Shown in pieces: positions 7,647 to 62,455 of a stretch of DNA of 64,000 nucleotides (positions are counted from its first letter, which is position 1; the number at the start of each line of letters is the position of its first letter). The notes below the pieces were generated by a model that worked only from the letters and a program-made list of their open reading frames with translations, was not told the DNA's origin and searched no databases. This DNA is from an uncultured virus (IMG/VR IMGVR_UViG_3300031418_000012) (taxonomy: Duplodnaviria; Heunggongvirae; Uroviricota; Caudoviricetes): the IMG/VR virus record IMGVR_UViG_3300031418_000012; one strand, written 5' to 3'. The position numbers and the translations under genes were made by a program.

Positions 7647-10321
7647 TGGCTGATTCAAATGTAAGCAAAAGTCAGGCTTTTGCTAATAACCAAAAGGCAC
7701 GTTTTAATCCACAATTCGTGCAACTTGCAACTGTTATGGACAACCGTGATCCACAAAAAACCGGTAAACTAAAAGTATGGGTTCAGAACTCACAAAGTGG
7801 CGATGACTCTAAAGGTTCATGGCTAACCGCCTCATACCTTTCTCCTTTCGCTGGAAGAACACCAGGTGTTCCAGGTGCCGCAAGTTATCAACAATTCCCT
7901 AAAGGCTATGGCTTTTGGGGAGTTCCACCCGATGTAGGGGTAACTGTCGCAATCTTCTTTGCAAACGGGAACATTCACGAATGTTATTGGTTCGCATGTG
8001 GTTTTGATGACCGCATGAATACCATGATTCCAGGAAGTGCTACACAGAAACTTCCAAGTAGTGGATATGATATGCCAGTACCAGTTACTGACTATGACCG
8101 TAACACAATTCAAACTCAGCTAGACGAGAAGTACGTTAACGTACCGTTAGTAGCAGGTTTAACAAAACAAAACCTTTTGTACGATGAGCAGAAAGGTGTA
8201 CCGAACCGTAGTAGTACTCGTCAAACTACCAGTACAGTTTATGGTTTGGCTTCTCCACGTGGAAATAACTTTATCATCGATGATGGATATACTGATGCTG
8301 AATTAACTGCACCAAATTGGGATGATGATCCAGATGGTTATCAGAACACACAAGTTAATAACCCAGCAAACGATACTACAGTAGGTTTACGTAAGAATGA
8401 AGGTATTGTCCTTCGTACCAGAAGTGGTGCACAATTCTTACTTTCCGAAAGTGATGGTAATGTTTTCATTATTAACCGCGATGGTACTGCAAGGATTGAA
8501 ATGACCGCTGATGGTCAAATTACTGCACACTCTGATAAAAGTATTACAATCAGAACAGAAGAAGATTTCAACCTATCTGTTAAACAGGATATGAATATTG
8601 AAATCGGTCGCAATCTTAATGTTCACGCACAAGGCGACACAAAATTAAACCTAGTAGGTAAATTAGACGCACTAATTGGAAACCAAGTTGTTATTAATAC
8701 AGGTGCTGATTTACGTTTGGTAGCTGCATCAAGTATTCGTGTACAATCCGGTAGTAGTACTAACATTACTTCTGGTGAGAACACTGCAATTAAAACCGGA
8801 ACAACTTTAGATGTAACTGCACCAGATTCTATTAATCTTAGTGGTGGTGGTACAAACTTCAATATCGCCGGAGTTGTGGAAAGTAGTTCACAAATTAATG
8901 CACCTGACTTTGTAACACCTAATGTTGGTCTAACAAGTCACATTCACTTACACGCTGCATTTGCAAGTCCTACCAATCACAGTAATGAGATGGCAGCACC
9001 AATTCAAGGCGGCACGAGCGGTAATTCGAAAGCGGCGGCGGCTCCACAGCCAGCCAATGATGTTGCACCAGAAACACCAAAAGCTGAAGCACAGAATTCA
9101 GTACAGCACATTAACAGTACTTCAGAAGTAAGTCAAGTTCTTACTCAAGATTTAGTAGTTACTGATGGATCTGACGGTTCTAGTACATACACTACTACAT
9201 ATGAAAGTTTGCAGTTATTCATGCCTTGTACTGGAACAATTCGACAATTCGGATTTTGGGGTAAAGGTGTTCCAACAGAATCGGGTTCTACCACAAATAG
9301 AAATGGATGGATTATCCAATGTAAAGGTGATGTTGTTGCACCTGAAGGTGGATTAGTTACAAAAATGGGAAATGGTGGTGTTATAATTACACACCCAATT
9401 GGATACAAGTCGGTGTTTTATGATATTGCTGTTAGTGTTAATAATAAAGATACTGTCACGAAAGGGCAGAAAATAGGAACATCGAACGGAGTATTCAGTT
9501 ACGAAATTCGTTTAGTTTCCGCAAACATTTATGGATTCTCAGGAACAGTTGATCCTGGATTATTCTTCAAGACTGTTACCGGAAAAGGTAGCGATTGTGC
9601 AAATAAGAGTTTAACTGCTGGTAAAGCATCTAATCCGAACGCTACTGCATCTACTGGTTATTCACCAGATAGTACTGACTTGGTAGTAATTACTACGGTA
9701 AACAGTATTGGTTCAACTTATGCACAGCGTGGTTCTTTACACGTTCCTCAACGAACTACTAAGAAAAAATCTGGTGGTGGTGGTAGTTCATCTGCACCTG
9801 CCGAAGATTTATCTAATTTAGATAAAACTGCTATCGATTGGAAAATTGTTCCAAGTGATGGAAAGTTGATGGAAGAAGTGAAAGAGTTCGAAGGTACAAT
9901 TCAGTATCAGACAGCCGTTGGGTATTACCGTAATGGTAAATTCTGGATTTATAAAGACAGTCTAGGTTATCCGACAATTGGTTACGGTCACTTAATTACC
10001 GCTAGTGATAACTTTGCTGGTGGTATTAATGAGGTACAAGCTGATGAATTACTAATGAAAGACTTAGTAAGAACAGTCAATGATGCTAAAGGAATTTATG
10101 CACAATATAAGATGAAAACTCCATATATTGTACAGATAGTACTAACTGAAATGGTATTCCAGATGGGTAAAGGTGGTGTTCTTAAATTCAAGAATACACT
10201 TCAAGCTATGGCAAATGGTGATTATAAAGCTGCTGCTGCTGGTATTAGAAATTCTGCATGGTACAGACAAACAACTCGTAGGGCAGAAGTTATGGCACGT
10301 AGATTAGAGGCTGCTCAATAA
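7646..10321 (+). CDS. gp5: Central spike (gp5/VgrG-like) with C-terminal M23-like and lysozyme domains
   Basis: OB-fold motifs DPQKTGKLKVWV and PPDVGVTV, beta-helix repeats, HIHLH, C-terminal YKDSLGYPTIGYGH lysozyme. Confidence 0.85.
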   Translation: MADSNVSKSQAFANNQKARFNPQFVQLATVMDNRDPQKTGKLKVWVQNSQSGDDSKGSWLTASYLSPFAGRTPGVPGAASYQQFPKGYGFWGVPPDVGVTVAIFFANGNIHECYWFACGFDDRMNTMIPGSATQKLPSSGYDMPVPVTDYDRNTIQTQLDEKYVNVPLVAGLTKQNLLYDEQKGVPNRSSTRQTTSTVYGLASPRGNNFIIDDGYTDAELTAPNWDDDPDGYQNTQVNNPANDTTVGLRKNEGIVLRTRSGAQFLLSESDGNVFIINRDGTARIEMTADGQITAHSDKSITIRTEEDFNLSVKQDMNIEIGRNLNVHAQGDTKLNLVGKLDALIGNQVVINTGADLRLVAASSIRVQSGSSTNITSGENTAIKTGTTLDVTAPDSINLSGGGTNFNIAGVVESSSQINAPDFVTPNVGLTSHIHLHAAFASPTNHSNEMAAPIQGGTSGNSKAAAAPQPANDVAPETPKAEAQNSVQHINSTSEVSQVLTQDLVVTDGSDGSSTYTTTYESLQLFMPCTGTIRQFGFWGKGVPTESGSTTNRNGWIIQCKGDVVAPEGGLVTKMGNGGVIITHPIGYKSVFYDIAVSVNNKDTVTKGQKIGTSNGVFSYEIRLVSANIYGFSGTVDPGLFFKTVTGKGSDCANKSLTAGKASNPNATASTGYSPDSTDLVVITTVNSIGSTYAQRGSLHVPQRTTKKKSGGGGSSSAPAEDLSNLDKTAIDWKIVPSDGKLMEEVKEFEGTIQYQTAVGYYRNGKFWIYKDSLGYPTIGYGHLITASDNFAGGINEVQADELLMKDLVRTVNDAKGIYAQYKMKTPYIVQIVLTEMVFQMGKGGVLKFKNTLQAMANGDYKAAAAGIRNSAWYRQTTRRAEVMARRLEAAQ

Positions 10322-10324
10322 ATA
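10317..10324 (+). promoter_or_regulatory. Late promoter AATAAATA for the stand-alone lysozyme
   Basis: TAAATA core overlapping the gp5 stop codon, about 30 nt before ATG 10356. Confidence 0.6.
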
Positions 10325-10355
10325 CCTATACTGATTATTTTCAGGAGGTAATTAT

Positions 10356-10844
10356 ATGAGTAATTGGGTTTTAACTAGTCAAGATGCTAAGCTATTAAAT
10401 GACATTAAACTGTTCGAAGGTACTATTGCATATCAAACTAAGGTTGGATATTTCAAGAATGGAAAGTTTAATGTTTACAAAGATAGTTTAGGTTATCCGA
10501 CAATTGGTTACGGTCACCTAGTACTTTCAAACGAAAACTTTGCACAAGGTTTAACTGAAAGTCAAGCTAATGACCTGCTAGCTAAAGATTTAGCTGCAAA
10601 AGTTTCAGACGCAAAATCGATTTATGAACAATATGGTATGAAAGGTAATATTGAATTACAGAAAGTTTTAACTCAAATGGTATTCCAGATGGGTAAAGGC
10701 AAAGTTCTACAATTCAAGAATACATTATCCTGTATGGCTCGTGGTGATTACAAAGGTGCTGCATCTGGAATGCGTAATTCTGCTTGGTATAAACAAGCAA
10801 CTTCACGTGCTGAATCTTTAGCACGTATTGTTGAATCGCTATAA
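10356..10844 (+). CDS. T4-type (GH24) lysozyme, paralogue of the gp5 C-terminal domain
   Basis: FEG...YKDSLGYPTIGYGH, MVFQMG, SAWYKQ..RA; strong AGGAGG RBS. Confidence 0.9.
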   Translation: MSNWVLTSQDAKLLNDIKLFEGTIAYQTKVGYFKNGKFNVYKDSLGYPTIGYGHLVLSNENFAQGLTESQANDLLAKDLAAKVSDAKSIYEQYGMKGNIELQKVLTQMVFQMGKGKVLQFKNTLSCMARGDYKGAASGMRNSAWYKQATSRAESLARIVESL

Positions 10845-10854
10845 GGGAAAAATA

Positions 10855-11244
10855 ATGGCAATTATATTCAAAGGATTTTCTTCTCCTATTGTGGGAAGGA
10901 CAAAAGTACTATACGACGTTGATTTAGTTAAACAGGATTTAATTAATCATTTTAATACTCGTAAGGGTGAAAGAGTGATGGATGTGGATTATGGTTTTAT
11001 CGGATGGGATTTACTATTCGAATTAGATAGACCTGGTAATGCACAATTACTGGAAGCAGATTGCAGAAATATAGTGTCGCAAGATCCTAGATTACAGTTG
11101 CTATCTATTACAGTTTCCAGCGTTGAATACGGTTACCAAATCAGCTTAGTACTTAACTATGTACAGTTAGAGACGGTAGAGGAATTATCGTTGGTGTTCG
11201 ATAATCGTTCACAACAACGTATGGCATTTGTTAATGCCGCATAA
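10855..11244 (+). CDS. gp25: Baseplate wedge subunit gp25-like
   Basis: NHFNTRKGERVMDVDYG and DPRL motifs. Confidence 0.85.
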   Translation: MAIIFKGFSSPIVGRTKVLYDVDLVKQDLINHFNTRKGERVMDVDYGFIGWDLLFELDRPGNAQLLEADCRNIVSQDPRLQLLSITVSSVEYGYQISLVLNYVQLETVEELSLVFDNRSQQRMAFVNAA

Positions 11245-11247
11245 GTC

Positions 11248-11277
11248 AAAGGCATCTTTCGAGATGCCTTTTCTTTT
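11248..11277 (+). terminator. Intrinsic terminator with UUCG loop
   Basis: GGCATCT-TTCG-AGATGCC followed by TTTTCTTTT. Confidence 0.85.
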
Positions 11278-11278
11278 G

Positions 11279-11286
11279 GATAAATA
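11279..11286 (+). promoter_or_regulatory. Late promoter GATAAATA
   Basis: TAAATA core between the terminator and the gp6 RBS. Confidence 0.65.
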
Positions 11287-11318
11287 TTTCTATATTATTA
11301 TATGAGGTGTATAAAAAC

Positions 11319-14300
11319 ATGGCACAACAAAAAAGACAATCTAATTTGTATGCTGCTGAAGATTGGACGCAAGTTTATGAAAGCTTTGCACAAATAAATC
11401 TTCAAGCTTATGATTTCGATACCATCCGTGAAAGTATGATTAACTATTTGCGTTTGACATATCCTGATTCATTCAATGACTGGATTGAAAACGATGAGTT
11501 CATTTTTATTCTAGATACAATTGCATTAATTGGTCAGAACTTAGCGTTCCGTATGGATATGAACAGTAGAGAAAACTTTCTGGATACTGCCGAACGTCGA
11601 GCTTCAGTACTTAAATTAGCAAAAATGATCTCTTATGCACCAAAACGTGCATATCCTGGACGTGGACTTGCGAAAGTAATGACCGTTAAAACAAACCAGG
11701 ACATTAAGAACAGTTTCGGTTCTTCATTACGTAACCAAATTATTCGCTGGAATGACCCAAGCGATCCTAACTGGTATGAAAACTTCATTCTTGTAATGAA
11801 CAGTGCTTTTGTGGATACGAACCAGTTTGGTGATCCAATTAAAAAAGTTATCGCCAATGGCGTAACTAATCAACTATACCAAATGAACACTATTCCAATG
11901 TCTGCTCCAAATATTCCATTCACTGCGAATATTAATGGTGAATCAATGACATTCGAAGTAGTCAACCCTGATATTACCAGTACAGGTACAGCACAAGAGC
12001 GTCATCCACAGCCACAAGAACAAAAACATATCATCTATCGTAACGATGGTAATGGATTCGAGTCTCCATATACTGGATTCTTTGTTTATTTCAAACAAGG
12101 TAACTTGTCATTCACTGATTATGACTATGAACAACGTATCGAAAACAGAACTCAAGATTTAGATACCAATAATATCAATGAAATTGACGTTTGGGTACAG
12201 GAAATTACCGAAGACGGTTTAGTACGTACTAAATGGACTCGTGTGCCAGCAATTGAATCAATTTCATATAACTCAGTAGACCGTAAACAGAAAAGTATCT
12301 TCTCTGTAACTACTCGTGATAATGACCAGATTACAATTAAGTTTCCTGACGCAAGAAGTGGTCAAGTTCCACGTGGATCTTATCGTTTCTGGTATCGTGT
12401 ATCAAATGGTGAGACTTATACGATTAAAACTACTGATATTCAGAACAAACCTGTACAATATACTTACAGAACTAATACTCAGTCAGAATACGAAAGCAGT
12501 ACTCTAGATATGCAGTTCAGTTTGCAATTCCAGTCATCATTAGCACAATCTAAAGAGACAATGGAGCAAATTAAAGAACGTGCACCACAACTGTACTACA
12601 CACAGAACCGTTTTGTTAACGGAGAAGATTATAATATTGCACCTTTGATGTTGGGTAACACTGTTTTAAAGGCTAAGGCAATTAATAGGATTTATTCTGG
12701 TCAATCACGCTTTATTGACATTAACGACCCGACCGGAAAGTACCAAAACACTGATGTATTCACCGATGATGGGGCAATTTACCGCGATGAAGTAAATGCA
12801 AGCAATTCGCTTCTACTTCCAAGTACAAAATCGAATGCAGCAATCGTTGTTGACGAAATTCAACCATTAATTTCGGATAATGCAGTAATTCAGCTTTATC
12901 AGGACTTCGAAGCTAACACAGTAAAGGTTTCTACTAATCAACAATGGAGTCCAGAGTTTAATTCGAACTATACTTCTAACACTTATGGACGTTTAATGTC
13001 TGCTAATGCTAATGTGGTATATGATATTGGTACAATTATCAATTTCCCAACCGCTTCCGGTACAGATGTATGGACTTCAGTAGTAGACGTGGTTGGTGAT
13101 GATTATATGGTTCTATCTGTACCAATTACAGCTAAGCAGCTATGTACTGAATACATCAAACCATTCCGTGTTAAATTCTCAAACGTAGAAGTGCAGACTA
13201 TTGCAGCTATGTTAGATAAAAAGACCGATTTCGTCATGATTTATGTTCCTAACACATTATCATGGGTTCCAATTCAAGGTACATACACTGGAAGTACAGT
13301 TCAGTATGAGAATTCTGCCTATCCAATTCTAATCAGCATCTCGTATACGGCTGAATCATGGGAATTCGTTTCCAATGGTGTAAATTACGTATTCGTTGGT
13401 GGAGATAAGGTACGATTCTACTTTGTTAGTACAGAAAATATCACTGATATTAGTACCGGTACAGTTCAATCGGATAAAATTGAGGTACTGTCTAATAACA
13501 CCAACTTCTCGAACAACAATGGTTACTCAACTGATGAATCTTTCCAGATTATAAAAACGGTTAATCAGGAAAATGGATATATTGATGGTTCTCGTGTAAT
13601 TGTGACCAGTTCACAGCGTGATAGTAATGGTATTCCACTAAATCCAAACCAGTTCAGAACGGTAGTTCCTTCATTAACAGGTGAAGAAAAGACTAAGTAC
13701 GAGCAGTGGTTAGTTTTTCAAGAAAACTCGGACTTTACTATTGATTTAGTTGATCCAACTGGTGGAAATTTTACTTTATTGGATTCAACTTGGAACTATA
13801 CACTAGCTCAAGTTAATGCTGAGACTGTTGCATACCGTAAAGCTGCACTATTACGTAATGTTGAGATGCGAAGTACGAGTATTACTAATCTTTATAATCG
13901 TGGCTCCGGCTTTGTTATTGGATTTGAGTATAATGGAACTGATTATTTCGTAAAACAGACTGTTGGAAATAATAATGACCGTTTAAACAACTTCCTATCT
14001 AATATGACTCTTTCGACTGACGGTAATCCATTGACACCTGAACAGGCGTTTGTCCGTGCAATTGAAAATATGAGCGTTGAAACAGCATCTGAAGCAACTA
14101 AACTTGATTATTATGGTTATATTAACGTAAGTACTGACTATTTCATCAAGAAAGATGCTCGTGTAGGAATTAATTATCATTGGAAGCACTATGCACCTGA
14201 TGATAACCGCATCGACCCAAGTAAAACCAACTTGATTGATATGTATGTTCTAACGAACTCATATAAGACAGCAGTTGATATTTGGTTGAAGCAGAATGAT

Positions 14301-14783: not shown

Positions 14784-14787
14784 TACT

Positions 14788-14813
14788 AAGGGCATCTTTG
14801 TGATGCCCTTTCT
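14788..14813 (+). terminator. Intrinsic terminator
   Basis: GGGCATC-TTTGT-GATGCCC-TTT, stem nearly identical to the one at 11248. Confidence 0.75.
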
Positions 14814-14818
14814 ACTTC

Positions 14819-14826
14819 TATAAATA
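14819..14826 (+). promoter_or_regulatory. Late promoter TATAAATA
   Basis: Exact consensus upstream of the giant ORF. Confidence 0.75.
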
Positions 14827-14864
14827 AAACAAATGAGAGAAAGAATTTTTTATTGGAGAATATA

Positions 14865-27223: not shown

Positions 27224-27252
27224 ATTATAGCACAAAAGTTGAATCTGTTCCA
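27224..27252 (-). promoter_or_regulatory. Early/middle-type promoter for clpA
   Basis: TGGAACA-N16-TATAAT with TGTGC extended -10. Confidence 0.7.
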
Positions 27253-27254
27253 AA

Positions 27255-27262
27255 AATAAATA
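27255..27262 (+). promoter_or_regulatory. Late promoter AATAAATA
   Basis: TAAATA core upstream of neck genes. Confidence 0.65.
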
Positions 27263-27293
27263 CAATATAGATTTCTTTTTTGGAGATAAAAAA

Positions 27294-32331: not shown

Positions 32332-32829
32332 TTAGTAATTTATTTGAATTTCTTCTAACTTACCGGCTAAGGTCTTTTGAAGTTCAGTCGGTTGAGTACT
32401 AATGTAATCACGCTGAACACCTACCCGCAAGTAAGTGAAATTACCTACTACGTTTTCAGCAAAGGTTCCAGTAACTCCATGCATATAGATGGTTTTTTCT
32501 GAATTTGGATTGAAGATGATAGTATCGGTAAATTCCATATAAAAATTGCAACTTTCTTCGAATTTAATTGGGAACCAATCTGATTCGGTTGGATTGCTTG
32601 CTAGTGTTGCTTGGACATAAATTCGTCCAATGAAGTTGCGTAATGTAAAAGCAAGGGTATGTAATCCTGTAGTACTGCCATAGTAACCACCAGCAGCTAG
32701 CGGTAGTGAAACTTCGTTCCAGTGATAGTCCTCATTAGTCGTATACCATGAATCGGTATCTTGATAATCAAGATATTCACCATCTTTACTTTTTCTTCTG
32801 AAAAGAAAATTTTTAGATCTTAAAGCCAT
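32332..32829 (-). CDS. Hypothetical (probably structural) protein
   Basis: 165 aa ORF with GAGGA RBS and upstream TATAAATA. Confidence 0.6.
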   Translation of the reverse strand: MALRSKNFLFRRKSKDGEYLDYQDTDSWYTTNEDYHWNEVSLPLAAGGYYGSTTGLHTLAFTLRNFIGRIYVQATLASNPTESDWFPIKFEESCNFYMEFTDTIIFNPNSEKTIYMHGVTGTFAENVVGNFTYLRVGVQRDYISTQPTELQKTLAGKLEEIQINY

Positions 32830-32860
32830 TTTATCAGTCCTCTGTATTTGAACTTTTACT

Positions 32861-32868
32861 TATTTATA
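32861..32868 (-). promoter_or_regulatory. Late promoter TATAAATA
   Basis: TATTTATA on the plus strand. Confidence 0.75.
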
Positions 32869-32891
32869 GTACAGCGATTGATAAAATACTG

Positions 32892-35057: not shown

Positions 35058-35115
35058 CATAAAATAATGATTGGGATAATAGTTTTTTCCAAATTCAATC
35101 CAACGGAGGGATTAC

Positions 35116-38100
35116 ATGTATTCTATAAAAACTGATCTTGGCGTATCTGGTAACTCAACAATCGAAAAAGATTTGTTGATTAAGGGTAGTGCGGTTATTG
35201 AGAAAGATCTTACCGTAAATGGGACTGTCAATTTCGCTAATGCAGTATTCACTCAGATCACTGTCACAGATGCAGCAAATCTTAAAGATGTAAACTCTAC
35301 AGGCACTGCGGCATTAAATGACGTTTCTGCAACTGGTAACACAATCCTTGGTAATTCCGATACCAATTCTGTTACAGTTAATGCAACCAGTACATTTAAT
35401 GCACCCGTCACTGTAAACAGTGATGCGTCTGTAAAAGGTAATACCATCTTAGGTGACGCTGCGACGGACACTTTAAAAGTTAATGCTGAATCAACTTTCG
35501 AAGCACCTGCTAATTTTAACGGCGACGTTATTGTTGGTGATGCTGTAAGTGATTCACTAACTGTAAATTCAACTGCGAATTTAAAAAATAATGTCAACAT
35601 CGGGGAAGATGCGACTGACATTCTCGCTATTAAAAGCACAACTAACTTCGATAACAATGTAACTATTGGTGATGCGAAGACTGATGTTCTATCTATTAAT
35701 AGCAAAACTGATATTAAAAATGATGTGGTTATTGGTGAAGATGCAACTGATACACTAACTATCAACAGTACTGTTGCTCTAGCTGGGGATATTACTTCTT
35801 CAGGAAATGCAACATTCGATGGAAATCTAATTGTAAGTGGTGACACCACCCTAGAGAAATTAACCGTAAACGGCGATGCGGCTCTAAATGGTTCTTTAAC
35901 TATGGCTTCTGGTACTACTGCTTCTGTTGATAACCTAGTTATTAATGGTAATATAAGCGGTAACTTTACACTAGATAACGGAAATTTCAAAACATTAAAT
36001 GTAACTGGTGTATCTACTCTTACTTCATTGACAGTTTCAGGCACTTCATCACTAGGTAACGTTAACTTAAATGGTAACATTTCTGGTACTTCAAGTTCTG
36101 CAACTTTCAAAACGTATAACGTTGCTGGTTCTGACGGAATCATTCAATTTAGTTATAGCGATCCAGCAAGACCAACTGATATTGTTTCTTCAATCGAACC
36201 ATATCAAGTAAGTTCAAACAAATTCCAAGGTCAACTTGGTGATTTTGATCGTATCACTGTTGGTGATGTAACTTATAGCACCGCTGGCCTAACCGCAGCA
36301 GGTATTGCTAAAATTGATTACCTAGATATTGTTGGTAACTCAACAACTGGTACTGGTCGTTCACAATTAACCGTCGCTGGTAAAACAACACTACATGATC
36401 TAGAAGTTCTTGGTTCTGTAACAGGTCTAACTGTAGATTTAACTGGACAGGATATTAACCCTAACTCAGTAACTGCAACGGCTGCTGTTAAAGGTGCTAC
36501 CTTAGAATCGACTGGTAATACTACTGTTGGTGGTAACTTATCAGTAATTGGACAAACAACTACTGTTAAAGATTTAGTAGTAACTGGCACAACTACTGGT
36601 GTAACTGTAACTGCAAATGTTGATGGACAAGATATTAAACCTAAAACTGTTGTCACTACTGGTGATACTTCTGTTGGTGGTGATCTTTCAGTAACTGGTG
36701 ACTTTAAAACTGCACTAAAAGCAACTGGTGGTATTACAACAAACTCACTTTCTGTAAGTGGTTCTACGGTTTTAGCTGCTACTACTGTTAATAGCATGTT
36801 AACTGCAAATAGTCTATATAGTAAAACCACATTACAAGTAGATGGTAATACTACACTAGCTGGTAATGTAACAGTATCGGGACAAACAACTACCGTTAAA
36901 GATCTAGTGGTAACCGGAACAACAACTGGTGTAACCGTAACTGCAAACGTTGATGGTCAGGATATTAAACCAAATACCGTTGAAACTACTGCTGGTATTA
37001 AATCTGGTACTACAATCGAGGCTGTTGGTGCATTGTCTGCTGGTTCTATCTCTACTTCTGGTACATTATCAGGTGGAGCAACAACTGTAGGCTCATTGAC
37101 TACTACCGGTAAAGTAACTGCTGCATCTTCTGATGTATCTGGTGCATTGTCTGCTGGTTCTATTACAACTTCAACTGTTGGTAATGGTTCAAACGCAGTT
37201 AACTTCACCTCTAATGTAACTATGGCTAAAGACCTAACAGTAACTGGTACTCTATCTGCTGGTAGTATTGATTTGAGTTCTTCAACTCTATCAGTAACTG
37301 GTGTTGATACTACTGGTGATGTTAACGTTGGTGGTAATTTAGTTGTATCTGGTTCATTCGACCTAAGTCAGTCTGATATATATGTTAATTCATTAACTTC
37401 AGCTAACGCAGTTGTTGTTTCAAGTACATCTGCTGAATCAAAACTACCTGTACTAACAAGTACAACATTGAAGTCTAGTACATTAAATGTAACTGGTGCT
37501 TCTGTATTAGCTGGTCTAACCGCAAGTACAATTACTGCAACTGGTAATTCAACACTTGCTGCTGTTTCTGCAACTACATTAACTGCATCTGGTACTTCAA
37601 CCTTTAATGGAAGTATTACCTCTGCAAATAGTACTGTTGCAATTGCGAAATCAACTGCAATTACTGGTGATTTGGCAGTATCGGGTACACTAACTGCCGG
37701 TGTTATTGATTTAAGCACTACTGACGTAACCGTTAAATCATTAGTATCTAATGGTAATACACACGTTAAAGGTGATTTGGTTGTTGATGGTTCATTCGAT
37801 CTAAGTGCAACTAATCTATCTGCGGCAAGTCTTGCAAGTTCTGGTTCAACAACTGTTGGAACTTCATTGATCCTAACTGACGGTACTATTACTGGTGCTC
37901 CTAAGATTTCTGGAAATACAACAATTGGTGGTACTCTAGGTGTTACTGGTGCAACTTCACTATCTTCACTAACTACTTCTGGTAATACTACTTTAGGTGG
38001 TACTCTAGGTGTAACTGGTGTAATTTCTAAAGTTGGTGGTGGTAGCCTATCTGTTAGTTCTGCAACTGTGTTCTCAAGTGATGTTACTGTTAATGGTACG

Positions 38101-39510
38101 TTCACCCCAGCAGGTGGTTTAAACCTATCTGGTGCTGATCTTTCAGTAAATTCAGTTACTACTGCTGCTGCTGTTTCTGTTGGAACAACTTTAGGCGTAA
38201 CTGGTGCAACTACTCTAGCTGGATTAACTGCTGCTAATACAACAGTTTCTGGAACACTAGATGTTTCTGGTAAATCTACTCTAGGTGTTCTTGCTGCTGG
38301 TGCAACTACATTGTCAAGCACTCTATCTGTTACAGGTAACACTACTGTAGGTGGTACTTTAACCGTTAATGGTGCAACTGCAACATTGAAAGCTACTTCA
38401 GCTACTACTATGACAGTAGGTACTGGTACTGTTGACTCAACCAAAGTTGTTAACGTGTTTGGTGATTCTGTACTAAATGGAAACTTAGATGTAACTGGTA
38501 CAATTAACGCATCAATTAACTTAACTGGTCGTGACATTGCTCCACGTGGTATTAACGCTGCTGCTAATATTATTGCTGCTGGTTCAATCACTGCGGGTAC
38601 TTCTGTTACTGCTGCAACTGCTGTTATTGGTGCATCTGGAAGTACTAACAATAACCTACAGATTAATGGTAACGCTGTTACTACTGGTGATTTCACAGTA
38701 ACTGGTAAGATTATTGGTACACTAGACCAAACAACCTCTGATTTAACTGTTAAGAGCATTACTACTTCAGGTCTTGCCAAAGTTGGTACAACTCTACAGG
38801 TTGTTGGAGCATCTACCTTAGCTGGTCTATCTGCAACTAACATTACTGCTAGCGGTACTTTAGGTGTAACTGGTTCAACTACTTTAGCTGGTGTAACTGC
38901 AACTAGTATTTCAAGTTCAGGTACTTTAGGTGTAACTGGTATTTCTACTTTAGGTGTACTAAACGCTGGTAATACTGCAATCACTGGTACTTTAAGTACT
39001 TCAGGACTTGCAACACTATCTTCAGCAAGCGTAACTGGTAATACTACTTTAGGTACTTCATCTTCTAACACTCTAACTGTTAATGCAACGTCTAACTTTG
39101 TAAACGCAGTAACTGTTAAAGATATTACTGTTACTGGTACATTGAATACTGATTTGTCTAACTTAGTAACCACTTCGTTCAAAACTGGTACTTACTATGT
39201 TAAACAACATGCTGCTGAAACTGTTAGTACTACTACTTGGACTCCAGATGGTACTTCTAACGTTTATAACTTAACTGTATCCTCAGATACTGCTGTTCAG
39301 CCAATTACTGGTGCAACTACTAAAGGTGCAGGTTCATGGTTCATTTACATAACCCAGGATAGTACTGGACAACGTAATGTAACTTGGGATTCTTCATACA
39401 AGATCATCGGTGGTTCAGTAAACACTAATGCTGGTGCAGTAAGTATTTGCCAAGTAGTTTACTGTGGTATTGGTTCAACATTTGATGTGTTCATCGCACA
39501 ACGCCCATAA
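35116..39510 (+). CDS. Long tail fibre (T/G/S/V-rich beta-repeat protein)
   Basis: 1464 aa of short beta-strand repeats (LxVxG); C-terminal IYITQDSTGQRNVTW domain; followed by a chaperone-like gene. Confidence 0.75.
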   Translation: MYSIKTDLGVSGNSTIEKDLLIKGSAVIEKDLTVNGTVNFANAVFTQITVTDAANLKDVNSTGTAALNDVSATGNTILGNSDTNSVTVNATSTFNAPVTVNSDASVKGNTILGDAATDTLKVNAESTFEAPANFNGDVIVGDAVSDSLTVNSTANLKNNVNIGEDATDILAIKSTTNFDNNVTIGDAKTDVLSINSKTDIKNDVVIGEDATDTLTINSTVALAGDITSSGNATFDGNLIVSGDTTLEKLTVNGDAALNGSLTMASGTTASVDNLVINGNISGNFTLDNGNFKTLNVTGVSTLTSLTVSGTSSLGNVNLNGNISGTSSSATFKTYNVAGSDGIIQFSYSDPARPTDIVSSIEPYQVSSNKFQGQLGDFDRITVGDVTYSTAGLTAAGIAKIDYLDIVGNSTTGTGRSQLTVAGKTTLHDLEVLGSVTGLTVDLTGQDINPNSVTATAAVKGATLESTGNTTVGGNLSVIGQTTTVKDLVVTGTTTGVTVTANVDGQDIKPKTVVTTGDTSVGGDLSVTGDFKTALKATGGITTNSLSVSGSTVLAATTVNSMLTANSLYSKTTLQVDGNTTLAGNVTVSGQTTTVKDLVVTGTTTGVTVTANVDGQDIKPNTVETTAGIKSGTTIEAVGALSAGSISTSGTLSGGATTVGSLTTTGKVTAASSDVSGALSAGSITTSTVGNGSNAVNFTSNVTMAKDLTVTGTLSAGSIDLSSSTLSVTGVDTTGDVNVGGNLVVSGSFDLSQSDIYVNSLTSANAVVVSSTSAESKLPVLTSTTLKSSTLNVTGASVLAGLTASTITATGNSTLAAVSATTLTASGTSTFNGSITSANSTVAIAKSTAITGDLAVSGTLTAGVIDLSTTDVTVKSLVSNGNTHVKGDLVVDGSFDLSATNLSAASLASSGSTTVGTSLILTDGTITGAPKISGNTTIGGTLGVTGATSLSSLTTSGNTTLGGTLGVTGVISKVGGGSLSVSSATVFSSDVTVNGTFTPAGGLNLSGADLSVNSVTTAAAVSVGTTLGVTGATTLAGLTAANTTVSGTLDVSGKSTLGVLAAGATTLSSTLSVTGNTTVGGTLTVNGATATLKATSATTMTVGTGTVDSTKVVNVFGDSVLNGNLDVTGTINASINLTGRDIAPRGINAAANIIAAGSITAGTSVTAATAVIGASGSTNNNLQINGNAVTTGDFTVTGKIIGTLDQTTSDLTVKSITTSGLAKVGTTLQVVGASTLAGLSATNITASGTLGVTGSTTLAGVTATSISSSGTLGVTGISTLGVLNAGNTAITGTLSTSGLATLSSASVTGNTTLGTSSSNTLTVNATSNFVNAVTVKDITVTGTLNTDLSNLVTTSFKTGTYYVKQHAAETVSTTTWTPDGTSNVYNLTVSSDTAVQPITGATTKGAGSWFIYITQDSTGQRNVTWDSSYKIIGGSVNTNAGAVSICQVVYCGIGSTFDVFIAQRP
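36550..36972 (+). repeat. Internal direct repeat of about 93 nt (36550-36642 and 36880-36972)
   Basis: Both copies encode GQTTTVKDLVVTGTTTGVTVTANVDGQDIKP, 330 nt apart. Confidence 0.9.
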
Positions 39511-48686: not shown

Positions 48687-48690
48687 TTAA

Positions 48691-50537: not shown

Positions 50538-50539
50538 AA

Positions 50540-50932
50540 TTAGATTCCCACAAAACCTTTTTGTTGTGCATAAGAGTCTGCTTCAGCAGCACCGACTTCA
50601 TAGTTCTGGACACCATCTTTATCAATATAAGGACCAAAACCTTCAGCACCATATTCTTCTTCTAGTTCTTCTTCAGAACCCTCAACACTATATTCATCAT
50701 CAACTTCAGGTGAAGTTAATTCTTTCAAAGAATCAGAAATATTCTTCAAATCTGAAGTTAATGATTCCAAATCTTCGATTGAACCATCAGCAATTTGTCC
50801 TGATAATTCTTTTAGGGAGCCAATAATCTCTTTTAGTAATTCAGGAGCAGAAAGTTCAGATTCGACCTGAACTTCTTCTTCTGAATCATAAATGTCATCA
50901 ATGGATTCCATTAGTTTTTTCATGTTACTCAT
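50540..50932 (-). CDS. Acidic protein, candidate prohead core/internal protein
   Basis: Highly acidic; N-terminal MKKLMES. Confidence 0.5.
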   Translation of the reverse strand: MSNMKKLMESIDDIYDSEEEVQVESELSAPELLKEIIGSLKELSGQIADGSIEDLESLTSDLKNISDSLKELTSPEVDDEYSVEGSEEELEEEYGAEGFGPYIDKDGVQNYEVGAAEADSYAQQKGFVGI

Positions 50933-51852: not shown

Positions 51853-51872
51853 AATAACTAATTCCTTTTATA

Positions 51873-53240: not shown

Positions 53241-53252
53241 TATCTTCTCCTA

Positions 53253-53816: not shown

Positions 53817-53819
53817 CGA

Positions 53820-54365: not shown

Positions 54366-54392
54366 GTTAACTCCGAGTCACAGTAATTTAAT

Positions 54393-54953: not shown

Positions 54954-54954
54954 A

Positions 54955-56504
<1,550 letters not shown>

Positions 56505-56513
56505 ATATTATCC

Positions 56514-57287
56514 TTATAAACTTGTATTACCAAAAATCTTATCAACAATATCAAGTGCACTATTAGTCTTATCAGATAGCAATGAATTAATTCTGTCTGA
56601 GTACATTTCTTCAATCATATCATATTGAACACAGTTATCTGGTTTAATAGTTAATTTCATTGTTAAGTACTGAGATGAACCATAATCAAGGGAATCCCAT
56701 GAAATATCGGTAATAATGCAACCATAGCAAACCCAACGGTCTAAAGTACTTAATGCGTTATAACCTTTACCACCAACGAAATCGTCAATAGCATTTACTA
56801 GTCCTGCGTTGTTTGTTACTGCTGTCGCCGCATCAACGGCTGTATCTCTAATTAGATTAGTAAGAGAATCATCAGGGTTTGCACCACCAGTAGTTTCAAT
56901 CATCATTCGGAATTTGTATCCGGCGAATGGTTGTTCTGATTTTGCTGATATTCTGCGTTGGAAATCTAATTGTTTTTGAAGTTGGCGTATAATTGCTTTC
57001 GCTGCCTGGTTATCTACCGAATCACGAATAGTCAGGGTGATTGGTTTCCAATCCCAACGTCCTACATAAGAGGTATTTGTTGCGAACTGATATAATTGGT
57101 GAGTTTCGAAAGAAATGCTCGGACGGTCTACTGATTCAACTTCAAGTGCAATATGGTCTTTTTCATCTATGTCAATACCAAAATTATAAACGACCACGCG
57201 AAACTTGTGTTTCACTTTTGGCTGACTCATTGTTTTGTTTCGACCACTAGGTAAAGGAACGCCATATTTATCCATCATGCTTGCCAT
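56514..57287 (-). CDS. Tail tube protein paralogue
   Basis: QPKVKHKFRV and GRWDWKPITLTIRD; clearly similar to 57368-58057. Confidence 0.75.
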   Translation of the reverse strand: MASMMDKYGVPLPSGRNKTMSQPKVKHKFRVVVYNFGIDIDEKDHIALEVESVDRPSISFETHQLYQFATNTSYVGRWDWKPITLTIRDSVDNQAAKAIIRQLQKQLDFQRRISAKSEQPFAGYKFRMMIETTGGANPDDSLTNLIRDTAVDAATAVTNNAGLVNAIDDFVGGKGYNALSTLDRWVCYGCIITDISWDSLDYGSSQYLTMKLTIKPDNCVQYDMIEEMYSDRINSLLSDKTNSALDIVDKIFGNTSL

Positions 57288-57334
57288 TACATTTTCCCCT
57301 ATTTAATATGGTATGTATAATTATATTTAGCAAT

Positions 57335-57359
57335 AAAAAAGCCCTGAACATGTCAGGGC
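57335..57359 (-). terminator. Intrinsic terminator after the tube gene
   Basis: GCCCTGA-N5-TCAGGGC followed by T6 on the minus strand. Confidence 0.8.
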
Positions 57360-57367
57360 GTTTATTT

Positions 57368-58057
57368 TTATTGACCTTGGTAGAAATTGGAATCTGGTAG
57401 AGTCTCGGAGTTGATTGCCGTTGGACTTGTACTAATAGAAATTGAATTCTTAGGAGTACCGTTACCTGCGACTTCATCACCTAGAGCTTGACCTTCTGGT
57501 CCAACTAGAACACAACCATCTGGTTGTAGTGACATAGTAATTACTTGTGCTTCTGAGCTGGAATAATCCCACTCACCGAAGTTTGAATCAGTAATAAAAC
57601 ATCCTTGGCAAATCCAAGTATGTAGTGTTCCTTCATAAAGGTTGGTTAAGTTTTCACTATTCGAGCCGTCAAGAGCCTGAATCCACATTTCGAATTTATA
57701 CTGTGAAGCACTAGTACGAGATTCTTGTGAGTAGTAGTTGAATTCTTTACGCATTTGGTTCCAAATGGCTTTCAATGACATGTTGCCTACTGAGTCGCGG
57801 AATGCTACTTCAATTGTTGACCATGTATATTTGCCTTTGTAGTGTGCCGAACTGTTATAACTGTGAACAGTTATATTTTCGTGCTCCACATGAGGTGTAC
57901 CAACAGTATTCGTGTCTAATGTAATATAATTACCGTCTTCGGTATTACCAAAGCCGAAGAATACTACACGGAAACGATACTTTGGCTTAGGTTGCTTCAT
58001 TGGTGCACGTGCTGCACCTGGAATTGGAGCACCATATTTATCCAGTAAATTTGCCAT
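57368..58057 (-). CDS. gp19: Tail tube protein (gp19-like)
   Basis: QPKPKYRFRV, GKYTWSTIEVAFRD and WICQGCF; directly after the sheath gene with own late promoter. Confidence 0.8.
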   Translation of the reverse strand: MANLLDKYGAPIPGAARAPMKQPKPKYRFRVVFFGFGNTEDGNYITLDTNTVGTPHVEHENITVHSYNSSAHYKGKYTWSTIEVAFRDSVGNMSLKAIWNQMRKEFNYYSQESRTSASQYKFEMWIQALDGSNSENLTNLYEGTLHTWICQGCFITDSNFGEWDYSSSEAQVITMSLQPDGCVLVGPEGQALGDEVAGNGTPKNSISISTSPTAINSETLPDSNFYQGQ

Positions 58058-58095
58058 TATTGATCTCCTAAAATCTAAGGGAATAATCTTTAATG

Positions 58096-58103
58096 TATTT
58101 ATA
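58096..58103 (-). promoter_or_regulatory. Late promoter TATAAATA
   Basis: TATTTATA on the plus strand. Confidence 0.75.
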
Positions 58104-58140
58104 AACTTTCAGGGGTTGGAAGTGCATTAGTAATAAAAAC

Positions 58141-58166
58141 AAAAAAAGGGAGCCAAAGGCTCCCTT
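58141..58166 (-). terminator. Intrinsic terminator after the sheath gene
   Basis: GGGAGCC-N3-GGCTCCC followed by T7 on the minus strand. Confidence 0.85.
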
Positions 58167-58170
58167 AATA

Positions 58171-60828
58171 TTATGAAGTTAAACTATTTTCCAAACGAAT
58201 CGGAATATAGATGAAGTTGATTGAACGAGTCGGAACAAGTGCAATATCCATCCACAATTCATTTGCATCAATACGTGAAGTTGTGTTGTTTGATTCATCA
58301 CAAACTACTAAGAAGTCGTAAAGACCATTTAGTTGTACAATTTCAGCTAGGAAGTTGTTAACAACTGAAGTGAATTCTTGACGAGTACTTGCAGTGTTTA
58401 GACGGAACAAGAACGGTTCAGCTAGTATTGATAGTTGAGTACGGATGTAAACAACAAGACGAGCAACGTTAACACGACTTAGTGCAGAACTATCATCAGC
58501 AGCTAGAGTTTTATCCCCATATACTAGAAGTCCACGGTTAGGACGCATTGCAATTGGGTTAATCTTGTTAACATACATTGTATCACGTTGACCCTGATTA
58601 TATACTACTGGAGCATATTCACCTTCGTCATTGATATAACCAACTGAAGCAGCATTTGTAACAATACCACGTTGTGTACCTGCTGGTGGATACCAAACAT
58701 AACTTACGCTATCGCTATAAGCATATGTACGCATCGCAACAGTACTTCCTGGAACTGCAACTTCAGAACCATCAACGTTAGTACCTAAACACCATCCCAT
58801 ATACTGTGCAGCATATGAATAAGCAGTTGTACGACCTACTTCACCATTACTTGCAGCGTTGTTTGCATTGGTCGCCCAAGCTTGAACATCTGTAGCAACA
58901 GGAGCTAAACGTGCTGGAACATCAGTTACGATGAATGCAGTTTCTTTACGGTCAGTGTTCAATGTTACTAGTTCATCTAGAAGTTCTACATATCCTGGAA
59001 CACACATTAAGTTGAACTGGATACTTTCAGCACGAATATCTTCGTTACTTACTACTACTGATGCTAAAGCTTCAACGATAATTTTACGTTGTGCTTCACG
59101 TCCAAATAGACCAGAACCATCTAGGCCAACACCAGAAGCAACTGTCCATACGCCATTTTTCATTACTTTAACAACACCTTCAGTTGAACCTAAGTCCACT
59201 GCAAGCATACCATTTTGGTATAGTTCTGCACTTGGAACATCACCATTAGTGAAGTCTTCAAATACAAGACCGTTTAAAGTGCTTTGGTCAGTACTATCTA
59301 GTTTTAACCATGTACCTGAAACATTACGGTAGAATACATAACCATCAATACCCTGTGAAAGTGGTTGAACCCAAAAATCACGGTCTGCTGCTGGTTCGTC
59401 TAATTGAACGTACATGTTAGTACTTGCATCAATCAAATCCCAACTATCAGTTGAAACGTTAGCAACATATAGAACTACGTCCAACGAATCAGAGTTGCTG
59501 AAGTTGTACCAGTAAGTGCCTTCTGCTGCTTTAGCAGTTGGAGTACTTGGTGAAACACGAATGTTGTTTACGTTAACCAATGAATAGTTGCTGCTATCAA
59601 CAGTTAGTTTAGAAAGTTCTGATGAACTGAATAGTTGTTGACCTGAATTAGTAGTAACGAAACTATAACCATTTTTATTACTTACAATTAGGGAACTAGT
59701 ACCAGTGAAAGTAAATCCAGCATTGATTAGTTCAGCACTTTTGTTAAGGTTAGCAATAATAGTAGAAACATTAATAACTTCGCCAGTTTTAACAGCTACA
59801 ACAGTTACTGATTTATTCAAGAACTTGAAAGTTAGTGAACCATTCGCAGTTGCTAATGCACCTGTTGATTGACCAGCAGGAACTGCACCCGCACTAATTG
59901 CTGCGATTGAACCAGCTTTAGTGTATAGTGAGAAGCTTTTACTGTCTTCGTCAAAAAGAGCACCGAAATATGTATTTCCGAAAGTACCGGATTTTGCTTC
60001 AATTTCGTAGAAGCTATTACCTGTCCAAACACTTACTTCAGACCAAACCGCAGTTAGGGAAGCATAACGTTTTAGTACAAAGCGAGTACCAAAATAGTTT
60101 GAACCATTTTTAGTATATCCATCACGAATCCAAATGTTACCGGTTAGGATACTAGAACCTGTAGGTACTTTGTTAATAGGTGATAGGTAAGTTTCAACCT
60201 GTACAAGACCAACTGCTTCATATTTGTACATAAGCATTTGTCCAGTACTTGGAATGTGGCGAACTAGTAAATCGTCTACGTTTAGACCAGTAGTGTCAAC
60301 GTCTGCAATGTGTTCTTCGCTAACGATAGTAACAGGCTTAACCTGCCAATCGTAGAAACTTGTTGGGTTGTCAATCTTAGCAACATATGCTTCGATTTGT
60401 GATGATTTTGTGTCTAACCACAATGTGCCGTTAGATACCGGACCAGTTGGTGCAGTACCAGTTGGTGCCAATTGTGCTAAGTCAATATCTGCACGAACTA
60501 CATAAGCACGGTTTGCAATACCCATGTAACTGTATAGTGCATGAAGACCGTATTCGTTTAGTTCGTCACCTTGAACTACTGAACCATTACTCGATTGGAA
60601 AATCGGTGATCCATATGTTTCAAGTGCGTTGCGTTGCGATGTAATTAGTTTAAGTGTACCTGCGTTAGCCTTAGTTGTACCAGTTGCAATTGAACTGCTT
60701 CCAGTAACTAGCTTATCTTGTGCAGTTGCAATAACAAACAAAGGCACTGTTCCGTTAGCACTTGTAGCACTAATGGTTTCATCGGTAACTGAAACACTAA
60801 CACCAGGTGATTGTAAATTATCAGCCAT
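58171..60828 (-). CDS. gp18: Tail sheath protein (gp18-like)
   Basis: LQSPGVSV, WYPPAGTQRG, INPI, YGDKT, RVNVARL and VVCDESNNT motifs. Confidence 0.95.
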   Translation of the reverse strand: MADNLQSPGVSVSVTDETISATSANGTVPLFVIATAQDKLVTGSSSIATGTTKANAGTLKLITSQRNALETYGSPIFQSSNGSVVQGDELNEYGLHALYSYMGIANRAYVVRADIDLAQLAPTGTAPTGPVSNGTLWLDTKSSQIEAYVAKIDNPTSFYDWQVKPVTIVSEEHIADVDTTGLNVDDLLVRHIPSTGQMLMYKYEAVGLVQVETYLSPINKVPTGSSILTGNIWIRDGYTKNGSNYFGTRFVLKRYASLTAVWSEVSVWTGNSFYEIEAKSGTFGNTYFGALFDEDSKSFSLYTKAGSIAAISAGAVPAGQSTGALATANGSLTFKFLNKSVTVVAVKTGEVINVSTIIANLNKSAELINAGFTFTGTSSLIVSNKNGYSFVTTNSGQQLFSSSELSKLTVDSSNYSLVNVNNIRVSPSTPTAKAAEGTYWYNFSNSDSLDVVLYVANVSTDSWDLIDASTNMYVQLDEPAADRDFWVQPLSQGIDGYVFYRNVSGTWLKLDSTDQSTLNGLVFEDFTNGDVPSAELYQNGMLAVDLGSTEGVVKVMKNGVWTVASGVGLDGSGLFGREAQRKIIVEALASVVVSNEDIRAESIQFNLMCVPGYVELLDELVTLNTDRKETAFIVTDVPARLAPVATDVQAWATNANNAASNGEVGRTTAYSYAAQYMGWCLGTNVDGSEVAVPGSTVAMRTYAYSDSVSYVWYPPAGTQRGIVTNAASVGYINDEGEYAPVVYNQGQRDTMYVNKINPIAMRPNRGLLVYGDKTLAADDSSALSRVNVARLVVYIRTQLSILAEPFLFRLNTASTRQEFTSVVNNFLAEIVQLNGLYDFLVVCDESNNTTSRIDANELWMDIALVPTRSINFIYIPIRLENSLTS

Positions 60829-60874
60829 TTAATCCTCCAAAAATCTTGGGTTTATTCGAATATTCGTATAATTA

Positions 60875-60882
60875 TATTTATT
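60875..60882 (-). promoter_or_regulatory. Late promoter AATAAATA
   Basis: TAAATA core upstream of the sheath gene. Confidence 0.7.
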
Positions 60883-60919
60883 GGAGGATGAACTGTAAGG
60901 TGTTTAAACGAGAATATAC

Positions 60920-61558
60920 TTATATAACGCGTAGAATGTCATATGCCTGATTATATAGGTCATTTAGTGTTCCAGTATTCTCTACGATGTAGTCAGGATG
61001 ATTGATACCTACCCAACCGTACTCTGAGCTATGAATGCCATCTAAGGAACGAGGAATAATTAAGTCCACATCAGCAGTATTTTTATGTAAATTATACTTG
61101 TATGCATCCCAATACCACTCAGGCAACTTACGCTGTACTTCAATAATGATACCATTCTGTTCACGAACTAATTTTACTTCATTAGGAAAACGACAATCAG
61201 TAATGATAATCTTATCACTGTCCATATTAAGAATGCGTTTTTCTAAACTGAACAACCAGATATTATCATGAAAATGCTTTCTAAGAACATCCGTACCCAA
61301 GTTCTGTAGTACCCAACGTGGAGTTACAGGACGACCCATTTTGTTAGTCCAGAATGCATCTTCTTGTTCACGGATAATACGAGATTCTTCGGTATTTCCT
61401 TCAAGCATTTCACGATCCCAACCGAATATAACACTTACTGCATCTTTTAATGATTCAGCAAACGATACTCGCTGGTATCCATTATCAATAAAAACTTTAG
61501 AGAATGTATCTTTTCCTGAACCAATGGTTCCGTTAATTGCAACTATTTTACGTTCCAT
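60920..61558 (-). CDS. Deoxynucleoside monophosphate kinase (T4 gp1-like)
   Basis: GTIGSGKDT, SFAESLK, TPRWVLQNLGTD, DCRFPNE and HSSE motifs. Confidence 0.9.
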   Translation of the reverse strand: MERKIVAINGTIGSGKDTFSKVFIDNGYQRVSFAESLKDAVSVIFGWDREMLEGNTEESRIIREQEDAFWTNKMGRPVTPRWVLQNLGTDVLRKHFHDNIWLFSLEKRILNMDSDKIIITDCRFPNEVKLVREQNGIIIEVQRKLPEWYWDAYKYNLHKNTADVDLIIPRSLDGIHSSEYGWVGINHPDYIVENTGTLNDLYNQAYDILRVI

Positions 61559-61577
61559 GTATTTTCTTCCTTAAACG

Positions 61578-61608
61578 AAAAAAGGAAGAACCTTTTTAAG
61601 GTTCTTCC
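61578..61608 (-). terminator. Intrinsic terminator after the neck gene
   Basis: 11-bp stem GGAAGAACCTT/AAGGTTCTTCC followed by T6 on the minus strand. Confidence 0.8.
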
Positions 61609-61625
61609 AATAATTATCAAATATA

Positions 61626-62411
61626 TTAGCCTATGATAAAGCCTAGTGGGTTACTACCATCTTCGTAACGGCGTAAGCGGTCACGTAATTCTTGTTGCAT
61701 ACGGATTGCGTTTGTTAGCAAATCTGCACCATCAAGAGAGAATGAACCTTGCGGCCCAGGTAGGGTTGCGAACTTCGAACGGTTACGGCCTAGAATCATC
61801 ATCGCTTCAGATAAAGCCCAATCACGTAACCACGGATAAGTACTTTGAGTTTTGAATAGTAATGGTTCTGGTTTATTATGATATACATGTAGAAGTACTT
61901 CTTCTTCACCACGAATATCACGCTCTAGTGTTAGCTTTTTAGTTACTGAGTTCCAAAGGAACATAATTTCTCGACCAAACATACGACCAACAGTTTCATC
62001 GAATTGGTGATATAAGTCATAAGTTAATAGACCTCCACCAGTACTTCCACGAACTGCACTTAATAGATATGTGTTACTGTATGCTAAAGAAAATGGATCT
62101 ACGGTAGAACCTGAACCCGAAACAACACCATTACCACGGCGATAAATTCTGCGAACAATTTCAACTTCAGTTGGTAGTTCGTATACAGAATCAGATTCGT
62201 AAAACTTCATATGCAAGAATGCTTCTTCTTTTGAAGCACCAGCCCATGCTCGGTAGTTTGCTACTGCATTATCAATACAAACCTCAAGCTGTTCATCGGT
62301 GATTTCAACTTCTACGGCACCTGCACCTAGCATTACTGTAACAACACGTTTCATTTCTTCACGGTGATCGTACTGTGGAGAATCTGGATTACCAGCATAA
62401 TTGTATGACAT
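61626..62411 (-). CDS. gp13: Neck protein (gp13-like)
   Basis: LGAGAVEVEITDEQL, WLRDWA and KFATLPGPQGSFSLDG motifs. Confidence 0.8.
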   Translation of the reverse strand: MSYNYAGNPDSPQYDHREEMKRVVTVMLGAGAVEVEITDEQLEVCIDNAVANYRAWAGASKEEAFLHMKFYESDSVYELPTEVEIVRRIYRRGNGVVSGSGSTVDPFSLAYSNTYLLSAVRGSTGGGLLTYDLYHQFDETVGRMFGREIMFLWNSVTKKLTLERDIRGEEEVLLHVYHNKPEPLLFKTQSTYPWLRDWALSEAMMILGRNRSKFATLPGPQGSFSLDGADLLTNAIRMQQELRDRLRRYEDGSNPLGFIIG

Positions 62412-62455
62412 AAAAAAATACCCCTAAACATGTTTATATATCATATTTAGGGGTA
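62412..62455 (-). promoter_or_regulatory. Combined terminator / SD-sequestering hairpin containing a late promoter
   Basis: 14-bp stem 62419-62432/62442-62455 with TAAATA in the 5' arm and AGGGG in the 3' arm, followed by T7 and ATG. Confidence 0.7.

Follow-up and report, generated by a model that had tools for sequence, protein, structure and literature searches.

The tail sheath gene and the gp13-like neck gene of an uncultured jumbo phage are each preceded by an inverted repeat that reaches across a predicted late promoter into the gene's own ribosome-binding site, and sequence comparisons make it likely that both repeats are translation locks of the kind described for gene e of phage T4. 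The DNA analyzed, a 64,000-nucleotide stretch of the IMG/VR record IMGVR_UViG_3300031418_000012 (hereafter the window), covers the region for tail and baseplate in a phage that belongs to the GAP32/CBB group, with a sheath protein 87% identical to that of XbC2 and 86% identical to those of CBB and GAP32. Mechanistically, on the longer RNAs of early or middle times the predicted hairpin would bury the Shine-Dalgarno (SD) sequence; an RNA begun at the presumed late promoter inside the hairpin would lack the 5' arm and would be translated. In this scheme the TAAATA boxes are presumably read by the gp55-type late sigma factor encoded in the window, with transcription starting about 6 nt downstream, prereplicative RNA would reach sheath and gp13, and translation would differ between the long and the short RNA. 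The features discussed below are collected in Table 1.

Each leader was scored by how much more ensemble energy is needed to open the ribosome site on a long RNA that begins 40 nt upstream of the box than on a short one that begins 6 nt downstream of it. The 6-nt offset from box to start is the T4 geometry, and A is enriched at the equivalent position in 41 of 68 leaders of G001, a complete 355-kb record that is 99.5% identical to the window and served as the basis of the genome-wide tests; three further complete genomes (G012, G013 and G014) have sheaths 74%, 72% and 66% identical. As a control, the upstream part of every leader was replaced in turn by that of all the other late leaders (67 swaps in G001). 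Since the swaps retain the box, helices built from the box itself receive no credit, which makes the test conservative. A distinct orthologous leader was taken to pass if no more than 1 of 19 swaps scored as high, and folding z-scores were calculated from 200 dinucleotide shuffles per site. Leaders were dropped when the protein was less than 60% identical (3 of 28 for gp13, 11 of 32 for sheath), together with one gp14 row, one spanin row, one KTSC row (alignment A3) and, from the tree, one partial gp13 protein. Applied to T4, the method ranked e, 49, I-TevI and I-TevII at 0 of 40, segB and 26 at rank 1 and soc at rank 4, and gave no lock signal for the T4 sheath, tube and portal genes.

For gp13, the long RNA gained +16.2 kcal/mol with one of 67 swaps as high, and the folding z-score was -4.1. 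All 25 distinct orthologous leaders passed the swap test and gained at least 7 kcal/mol. Covariation between the arms scored 0.163 versus 0.103 +/- 0.014, with none of 500 shuffles as high, a score that undercounts because five of the 25 rows are out of register in the MAFFT alignment. Registered by hand, four core pairs are intact in 25 of 25 leaders; one pair takes the form C-G in 18 leaders and U-A in the other 7; flanking pairs appear as U-A, C-G and A-U. On the protein tree (24 rows) the core pair requires at least two changes, and neighbouring pairs change further. Compensatory changes in relatives, named as a check in a preliminary description of this DNA, were found for gp13 as the C-G/U-A exchange; at the sheath site the relatives offer wobble pairs and conservation only.

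The sheath leader gained +10.9 kcal/mol with none of the 67 swaps as high and a z-score of -2.5. Its orthologues behave alike: 21 of 21 leaders gain at least 7 kcal/mol and 20 of 21 pass the swap test. In the stem, 166 of 168 alignment cells are paired, and five of the seven departures are C to U opposite G. Freed of their 5' arms, the short leaders of both gp13 and sheath fold at only -2 to -3 kcal/mol. A sigma-70-like match over the sheath box was discarded, its TATAAT being missing from the other 20 aligned leaders. The loop of the sheath leader (60843-60870) also contains a palindromic 10-mer, CGAATATTCG, which is retained in most relatives and remains on the late RNA.

Table 1. Positions of the genes, predicted promoters and hairpins considered in this work (window coordinates unless a G or L label is given)
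Feature	Position	Strand	Evidence or remark
Tail sheath gene, 885 aa	58171..60828	-	phrog_10581; 87% to XbC2
Sheath hairpin 5' arm, anti-SD with CCUCC core, abuts box; non-coding	60881..60889	-	column identity 0.96 vs 0.66 in flank
Sheath TAAATA late-promoter box (predicted)	60875..60880	-	invariant in 21/21
Sheath hairpin 3' arm, SD GGAGG and flanks	60832..60840	-	alignment
gp13-like head-tail adaptor gene, 261 aa	61626..62411	-	phrog_211, E 5e-41
gp13 hairpin 5' arm, overlaps late box; non-coding, directly past stop codon of upstream gene	62442..62456	-	15 cross pairs; compensatory changes
gp13 TAAATA late-promoter box (predicted)	62444..62449	-	invariant in 25/25 leaders
gp13 hairpin 3' arm, holds SD AGGGGU	62418..62432	-	sequence, pairing
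gp13 U7 run from stem to start codon, terminator-like tail	62412..62418	-	at least 6 U in 8 nt in 20/25 orthologues
gp55-type late sigma factor gene	3207..4067	-	phrog_12791 E 2e-157, phrog_234 E 6e-19
dNMP kinase gene between gp13 and sheath, no recognized promoter of its own	60920..61558	-	phrog_139; promoter scans
Intrinsic-terminator-like hairpin, gp13/dNMP kinase gap	61576..61608	-	hairpin scan
Intrinsic-terminator-like hairpin between nearest middle-type promoter and gp13	about 63699..63728	-	hairpin and promoter scans
Nearest middle-type promoter upstream of gp13	G000 65488-65516, outside window		promoter scan
Middle-type promoter of ClpA-like gene, TGGAACA and TG-extended TATAAT	27224..27252	-	promoter scan
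gp14 weak hairpin, box 27257-27262	27248..27285	+	swap test, orthologues
Inverted repeat around box 32861-32866 of 165-aa gene; strain-specific	32828..32887	-	orthologue comparison
Terminator upstream of first tube gene	58138..58166	-	terminator scan
First tube gene box, no conserved lock	58096-58101	-	swap test
Free lysozyme leader, box 10319-10324 overlapping upstream stop codon; 5-bp and 4-bp hairpin	10319..10350	+	weak
KTSC-domain gene	L045:7024-7557 (G001 207024)		strongest conserved lock (predicted), 12-bp stem over SD and U-run
T5orf172-domain gene	L043:422-733 (G001 160422)		short covarying anti-SD arm directly past box

Taken genome-wide, nine of the 68 late-box genes of G001 scored as locked (at most 1 of 67 swaps as high; 2 expected, binomial P 2e-4), compared with two of 110 box-less controls drawn from the 149 genes with an intergenic gap and no box (Fisher p=0.003). 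Gains of at least 7 kcal/mol were found for 13 of the 68 box genes and for none of the 110 controls. The excess recurs in the other complete genomes, with 11/69 (G012), 7/74 (G013) and 6/62 (G014) locked genes, and lock status is common to orthologues (Fisher p 0.001-0.02, six genome pairs). This excess, together with the sheath and gp13 results, supports the T4-type logic first suggested for this DNA. The further suggestion of a systematic lock on virion genes did not survive: the locked share in G001 (13%) is no higher than that of T4 (6/41), so that the lock is selective, and the swap test showed no lock at the major capsid gene, at either tube gene that has a box of its own, at gp6, at the giant baseplate gene or at the fibre genes. 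Within the window, two of 17 box-preceded genes are robustly locked.

All four complete genomes have the lock in common at four genes, namely gp13, sheath, the gene for an Rz-like spanin (borderline in G012, 3/59) and a KTSC-domain gene. Spanin leaders whose proteins are 30-37% identical build the same lock from different helices, and the KTSC lock is present in 12 of 12 leaders, with the arm shifted 10 nt relative to the box in L180. The T5orf172-domain gene passes in nine of 11 leaders, its arm straddling the predicted start. We propose that the lock would be used selectively, at late genes that are co-directional with prereplicative transcription and are not immediately preceded by a terminator of separate sequence, and that neck, sheath, spanin and KTSC gene would form its constant set across the group. 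Terminase, a DUF1353 gene and three virion genes of 89, 178 and 192 aa passed in G001, but elsewhere they passed only in part of the complete genomes or not at all, and they were set aside as lineage-level or chance cases. The endonuclease VII gene, considered as a parallel of T4 gene 49, gains +8.4 kcal/mol in G001; it was rejected, with four of 14 orthologues passing and a divergent -35 box as confounder.

Pairing of this kind could also be a by-product, arising where the DNA is rich in AT, where promoters prefer certain sequences, or where divergent promoters and ribosome sites meet, and some of the remaining inverted repeats of the window illustrate how. All six repeats and TAAATA boxes of the preliminary description are present where it had placed them, and two of them, sheath and gp13, are robust as locks; those of lysozyme and gp14 are weak or confounded, and those of the tube gene and of the gene at 32829 are not conserved. 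At gp14 the gain is +1.6 kcal/mol, five of 67 swaps are as high and seven of 14 orthologues pass. The claimed 5' arm is complementary to, and coincides with, the -35 box of the promoter of the divergent ClpA-like gene, and giving gp14 the upstream DNA of another such locus yields an equal lock (medians 4.1 vs 3.9 kcal/mol, native higher in 7/14); the gp14 hairpin is explained by this -35 box. The 32829 repeat gains +6.1 kcal/mol (3/67 swaps as high) with two of 13 orthologues passing, and a relative whose protein is still 94% identical no longer has the long repeat intact. The first tube gene, correctly expected to be weaker, gains +1.6 kcal/mol (19/67 swaps; 6/22 orthologues). The free lysozyme gene gains +3.6 kcal/mol with 24 of 67 swaps as high; its short arm is retained in nearer relatives (median gain 5.6; 6/14 pass), and we regard the site as weak. 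The folding z-scores of these four sites were -2.3 for lysozyme, -2.0 for 32829, -1.1 for gp14 and +0.3 for tube.

The by-product explanation therefore holds for gp14 and probably for 32829, tube and endonuclease VII, and the T4 divergent pairs 4/53, 26/51 and inh/segE gain pairing in the same way. For the conserved locks we consider it very unlikely: gp13, sheath, KTSC and spanin have co-directional upstream genes, they beat composition-matched swaps and covary, the compensatory changes refute it for gp13, and there is no general C-rich consensus ahead of the box.

The divergent loci had also raised the idea of action at the DNA level; a cruciform or a site for a dimeric protein might then gate the late promoter. 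The arms do flank or overlap the box symmetrically, and the 32829 repeat lies between back-to-back late boxes. Nevertheless, in each conserved case the 3' arm is the SD, arm sequences differ by gene without a shared motif, and departures favour G-U on the sense strand. Furthermore, a stem of 8-10 bp with a 40-nt loop would be an unlikely cruciform. As the gp14 arm is a -35 complement and the 32829 repeat is not conserved, the divergent cases need no cruciform, and we consider this kind of action highly improbable.

A more serious alternative, which is also compatible with the translation lock, is that hairpins of the gp13 type are mainly or additionally intrinsic terminators with a built-in late promoter. 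A box-spanning hairpin with a U-run and the SD within the stem occurs at gp13, at KTSC and at the 178-aa virion gene of G001, and at none of 42 T4 box genes. U-rich spacers were found in four of nine locked G001 genes, as opposed to four of 232 non-late and three of 59 unlocked late genes, and the KTSC U-run is retained in 12 of 12 leaders. In two of the four complete genomes, a 306-aa virion gene (L044:9886 = G001 189886; G013 18837) has its late box in the loop of a terminator-like hairpin and its SD past the U-run, an arrangement that may be a transcription-only version of the lock. On the other side, the gp13 tail is short of U in five of 25 orthologues that all retain the stem, which points to pairing over the SD as the constant feature; the sheath hairpin lacks a U-run, and its loop measures 40 nt; and loops of at least 9 nt are long for terminators (a standard terminator scanner leaves the gp13 hairpin unlisted, its loop exceeding 8 nt). 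In addition, a full stop at gp13 would cut off the dNMP kinase gene, for which no promoter was recognized, before late times. We hold the terminator function as a possibility to be entertained with some doubt. Tentatively, both functions might be combined in a self-cancelling double lock of Rak2-like phages, in which one hairpin would terminate read-through and hide the ribosome site, late initiation would lift both, and a small, fixed set of genes that time assembly and lysis (neck, sheath, spanin and KTSC gene) would be gated group-wide in place of T4's separation of early and late genes by strand.

The translation lock presupposes earlier RNA across these leaders, and gene orientation is in line with this. 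In G001, 257 of 288 called genes (about 90%) lie on one strand, which also carries 38 of the 39 middle-type promoters. When the cut was relaxed to 3 or fewer swaps as high and a gain of 6 kcal/mol or more, 13 genes counted as locked; all 13 are on this strand, compared with 36 of the 55 other box genes (p=0.014). Within the window, both sheath and gp13 are preceded by co-directional non-structural genes, and gp14 and lysozyme are on the opposite strand. For the more distant phage PA5oct, the available text of PMC7318152 describes early transcription almost only from one strand, a pattern compatible with our strand picture. A likely carrier of read-through into the sheath leader is the dNMP kinase gene. 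T4 gene 1 is made before late times; if the dNMP kinase gene, with no recognized promoter of its own, is also made before late times, its RNA must cross the gp13 leader and would continue into the sheath leader. The terminator-like hairpins at 61576-61608 and about 63699-63728 stand directly before the dNMP kinase and phosphatase genes, leaving no space for a promoter, and such abutment implies leaky termination or an antitermination system.

Several observations weigh against the translation lock and should be set against this evidence. The nearest middle-type promoter is 3.1 kb upstream of gp13 and 4.6 kb upstream of sheath, with one separate terminator-like hairpin on the path to gp13 and two on the path to sheath, so read-through must be leaky or antiterminated. 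Of 23 listed RNA runs four were compared with this DNA; all of them were assembled contigs with patchy cover that carry neither starts nor strands, and runs with a small share are no sign of habitat or expression. The scarcity of separate terminators within 60 nt upstream of locked genes (0/13 vs 13/55 others) is borderline (p=0.06). In the sheath stem no double-sided change was seen among the 21 leaders, because the SD never varies; the covariation shuffle control there is uninformative (500/500), and C to U is the commonest substitution in AT-rich DNA anyway. The orthologues are akin, so that their counts overstate independence. Finally, some of the 68 box-gene pairs are chance boxes ahead of what are probably middle genes, DNA polymerase and nrdA among them, and the true locked share among late genes is accordingly somewhat higher.

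Locks could instead serve to tune late stoichiometry, by silencing long late RNAs so that each gene is made only from its own promoter. Late boxes do exist upstream of sheath (that of gp13) and of gp13 (box at G000 64019), and tuning would suit the weak hairpin of the lysozyme gene, which can receive upstream RNA from a late operon only. On the other hand, genes within purely late operons (54365, 51852 and the major capsid gene) are unlocked, and the locks follow the prereplicative strand; we judge tuning unlikely.

Further features were noted around these loci. At three of them, gp55 (window 4116-4155), the ClpA-like gene (27224-27262) and endonuclease VII (G001 near 149600), a middle-type -35 box lies about 4-10 bp from an opposite-strand late box, back to back. 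This layout, kept in most relatives, could make the two promoters mutually exclusive, that of the late sigma gene included. The 79-aa gene (window 63731-63970, box G000 64019-64024) has a C-run that, with the box, pairs with the SD around an inner hairpin in most of 14 relatives, a helix without significance in the swap test, where the box is retained; a similar box-based helix precedes a 323-aa virion gene (G001 185398) in four of four genomes. The free lysozyme gene (10356-10844) has a close paralogue in the C-terminal lysozyme domain encoded by the adjoining upstream gp5-like gene, and both fall in the same PHROG. The long fibre gene carries a hairpin between box and SD (35073-35110) that is present in nearer relatives, absent in more distant ones, and remains on the late RNA. 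Long antisense open reading frames of 296 and 604 codons in the tail fibre gene (35253-36143 and 37368-39182, minus strand) are probably shadows of repeat codon use. A search of the window with Rfam at the gathering threshold gave no matches.

The mechanism itself is known from T4, and structural-gene locks are not new either. According to the portions of PMC3014915 available to us, T4 e, soc, 49 and I-TevI have a hairpin that sequesters the ribosome-binding site and contains a late promoter. The accessible parts of PMC2988022 describe I-TevII, I-TevIII, segB and Aeh1 mobE as late genes that share long polycistronic RNAs with genes of the early and middle classes, and already name the structural genes soc, 25 and 26 (25 and 26 being T4 baseplate genes); the cases given there come from T-even and Aeromonas phages, are mostly mobile nucleases, and do not extend to Rak2-like jumbo phages. 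For CBB, the main text of PMC5259590 gives 35 predicted sites of an ATAAATA late motif and a further class of promoters whose -35 box is TGAAACG; for CBB and GAP32 it thus has the same box before structural genes and the same second class as here and notes a gp55-like sigma factor, and in that text, its supplementary promoter and terminator tables aside, the word hairpin does not occur. Among sources other than subscription papers and the CBB supplements, we found no published description of these hairpins in Rak2-like phages. With the mechanism established in T4, the gain is one of scope, along with a testable terminator variant: the results indicate how phages with about 90% of their genes on one strand could silence late tail and lysis genes under earlier transcription, and they pinpoint four conserved leaders in culturable phages.

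Like T4 e, soc, 49 and I-TevI, the sheath and gp13 leaders are predicted to pair the SD or AUG on the long RNA, carry a gp55-type box in the DNA that encodes the 5' arm, and would belong to late genes embedded in prereplicative transcription; these T4 cases score like sheath and gp13 in the same swap test, and the T5orf172-domain gene resembles T4 gene e in having its anti-SD arm directly past the box. Unlike in T4, where the sheath gene is unlocked, the locks here would cover sheath and neck genes of the core tail, the TAAATA box lacks a leading TA, and several hairpins end in U-runs. T4 structural clusters mostly face away from early transcription, whereas sheath and neck here face along it, which is probably what creates the need for a lock.

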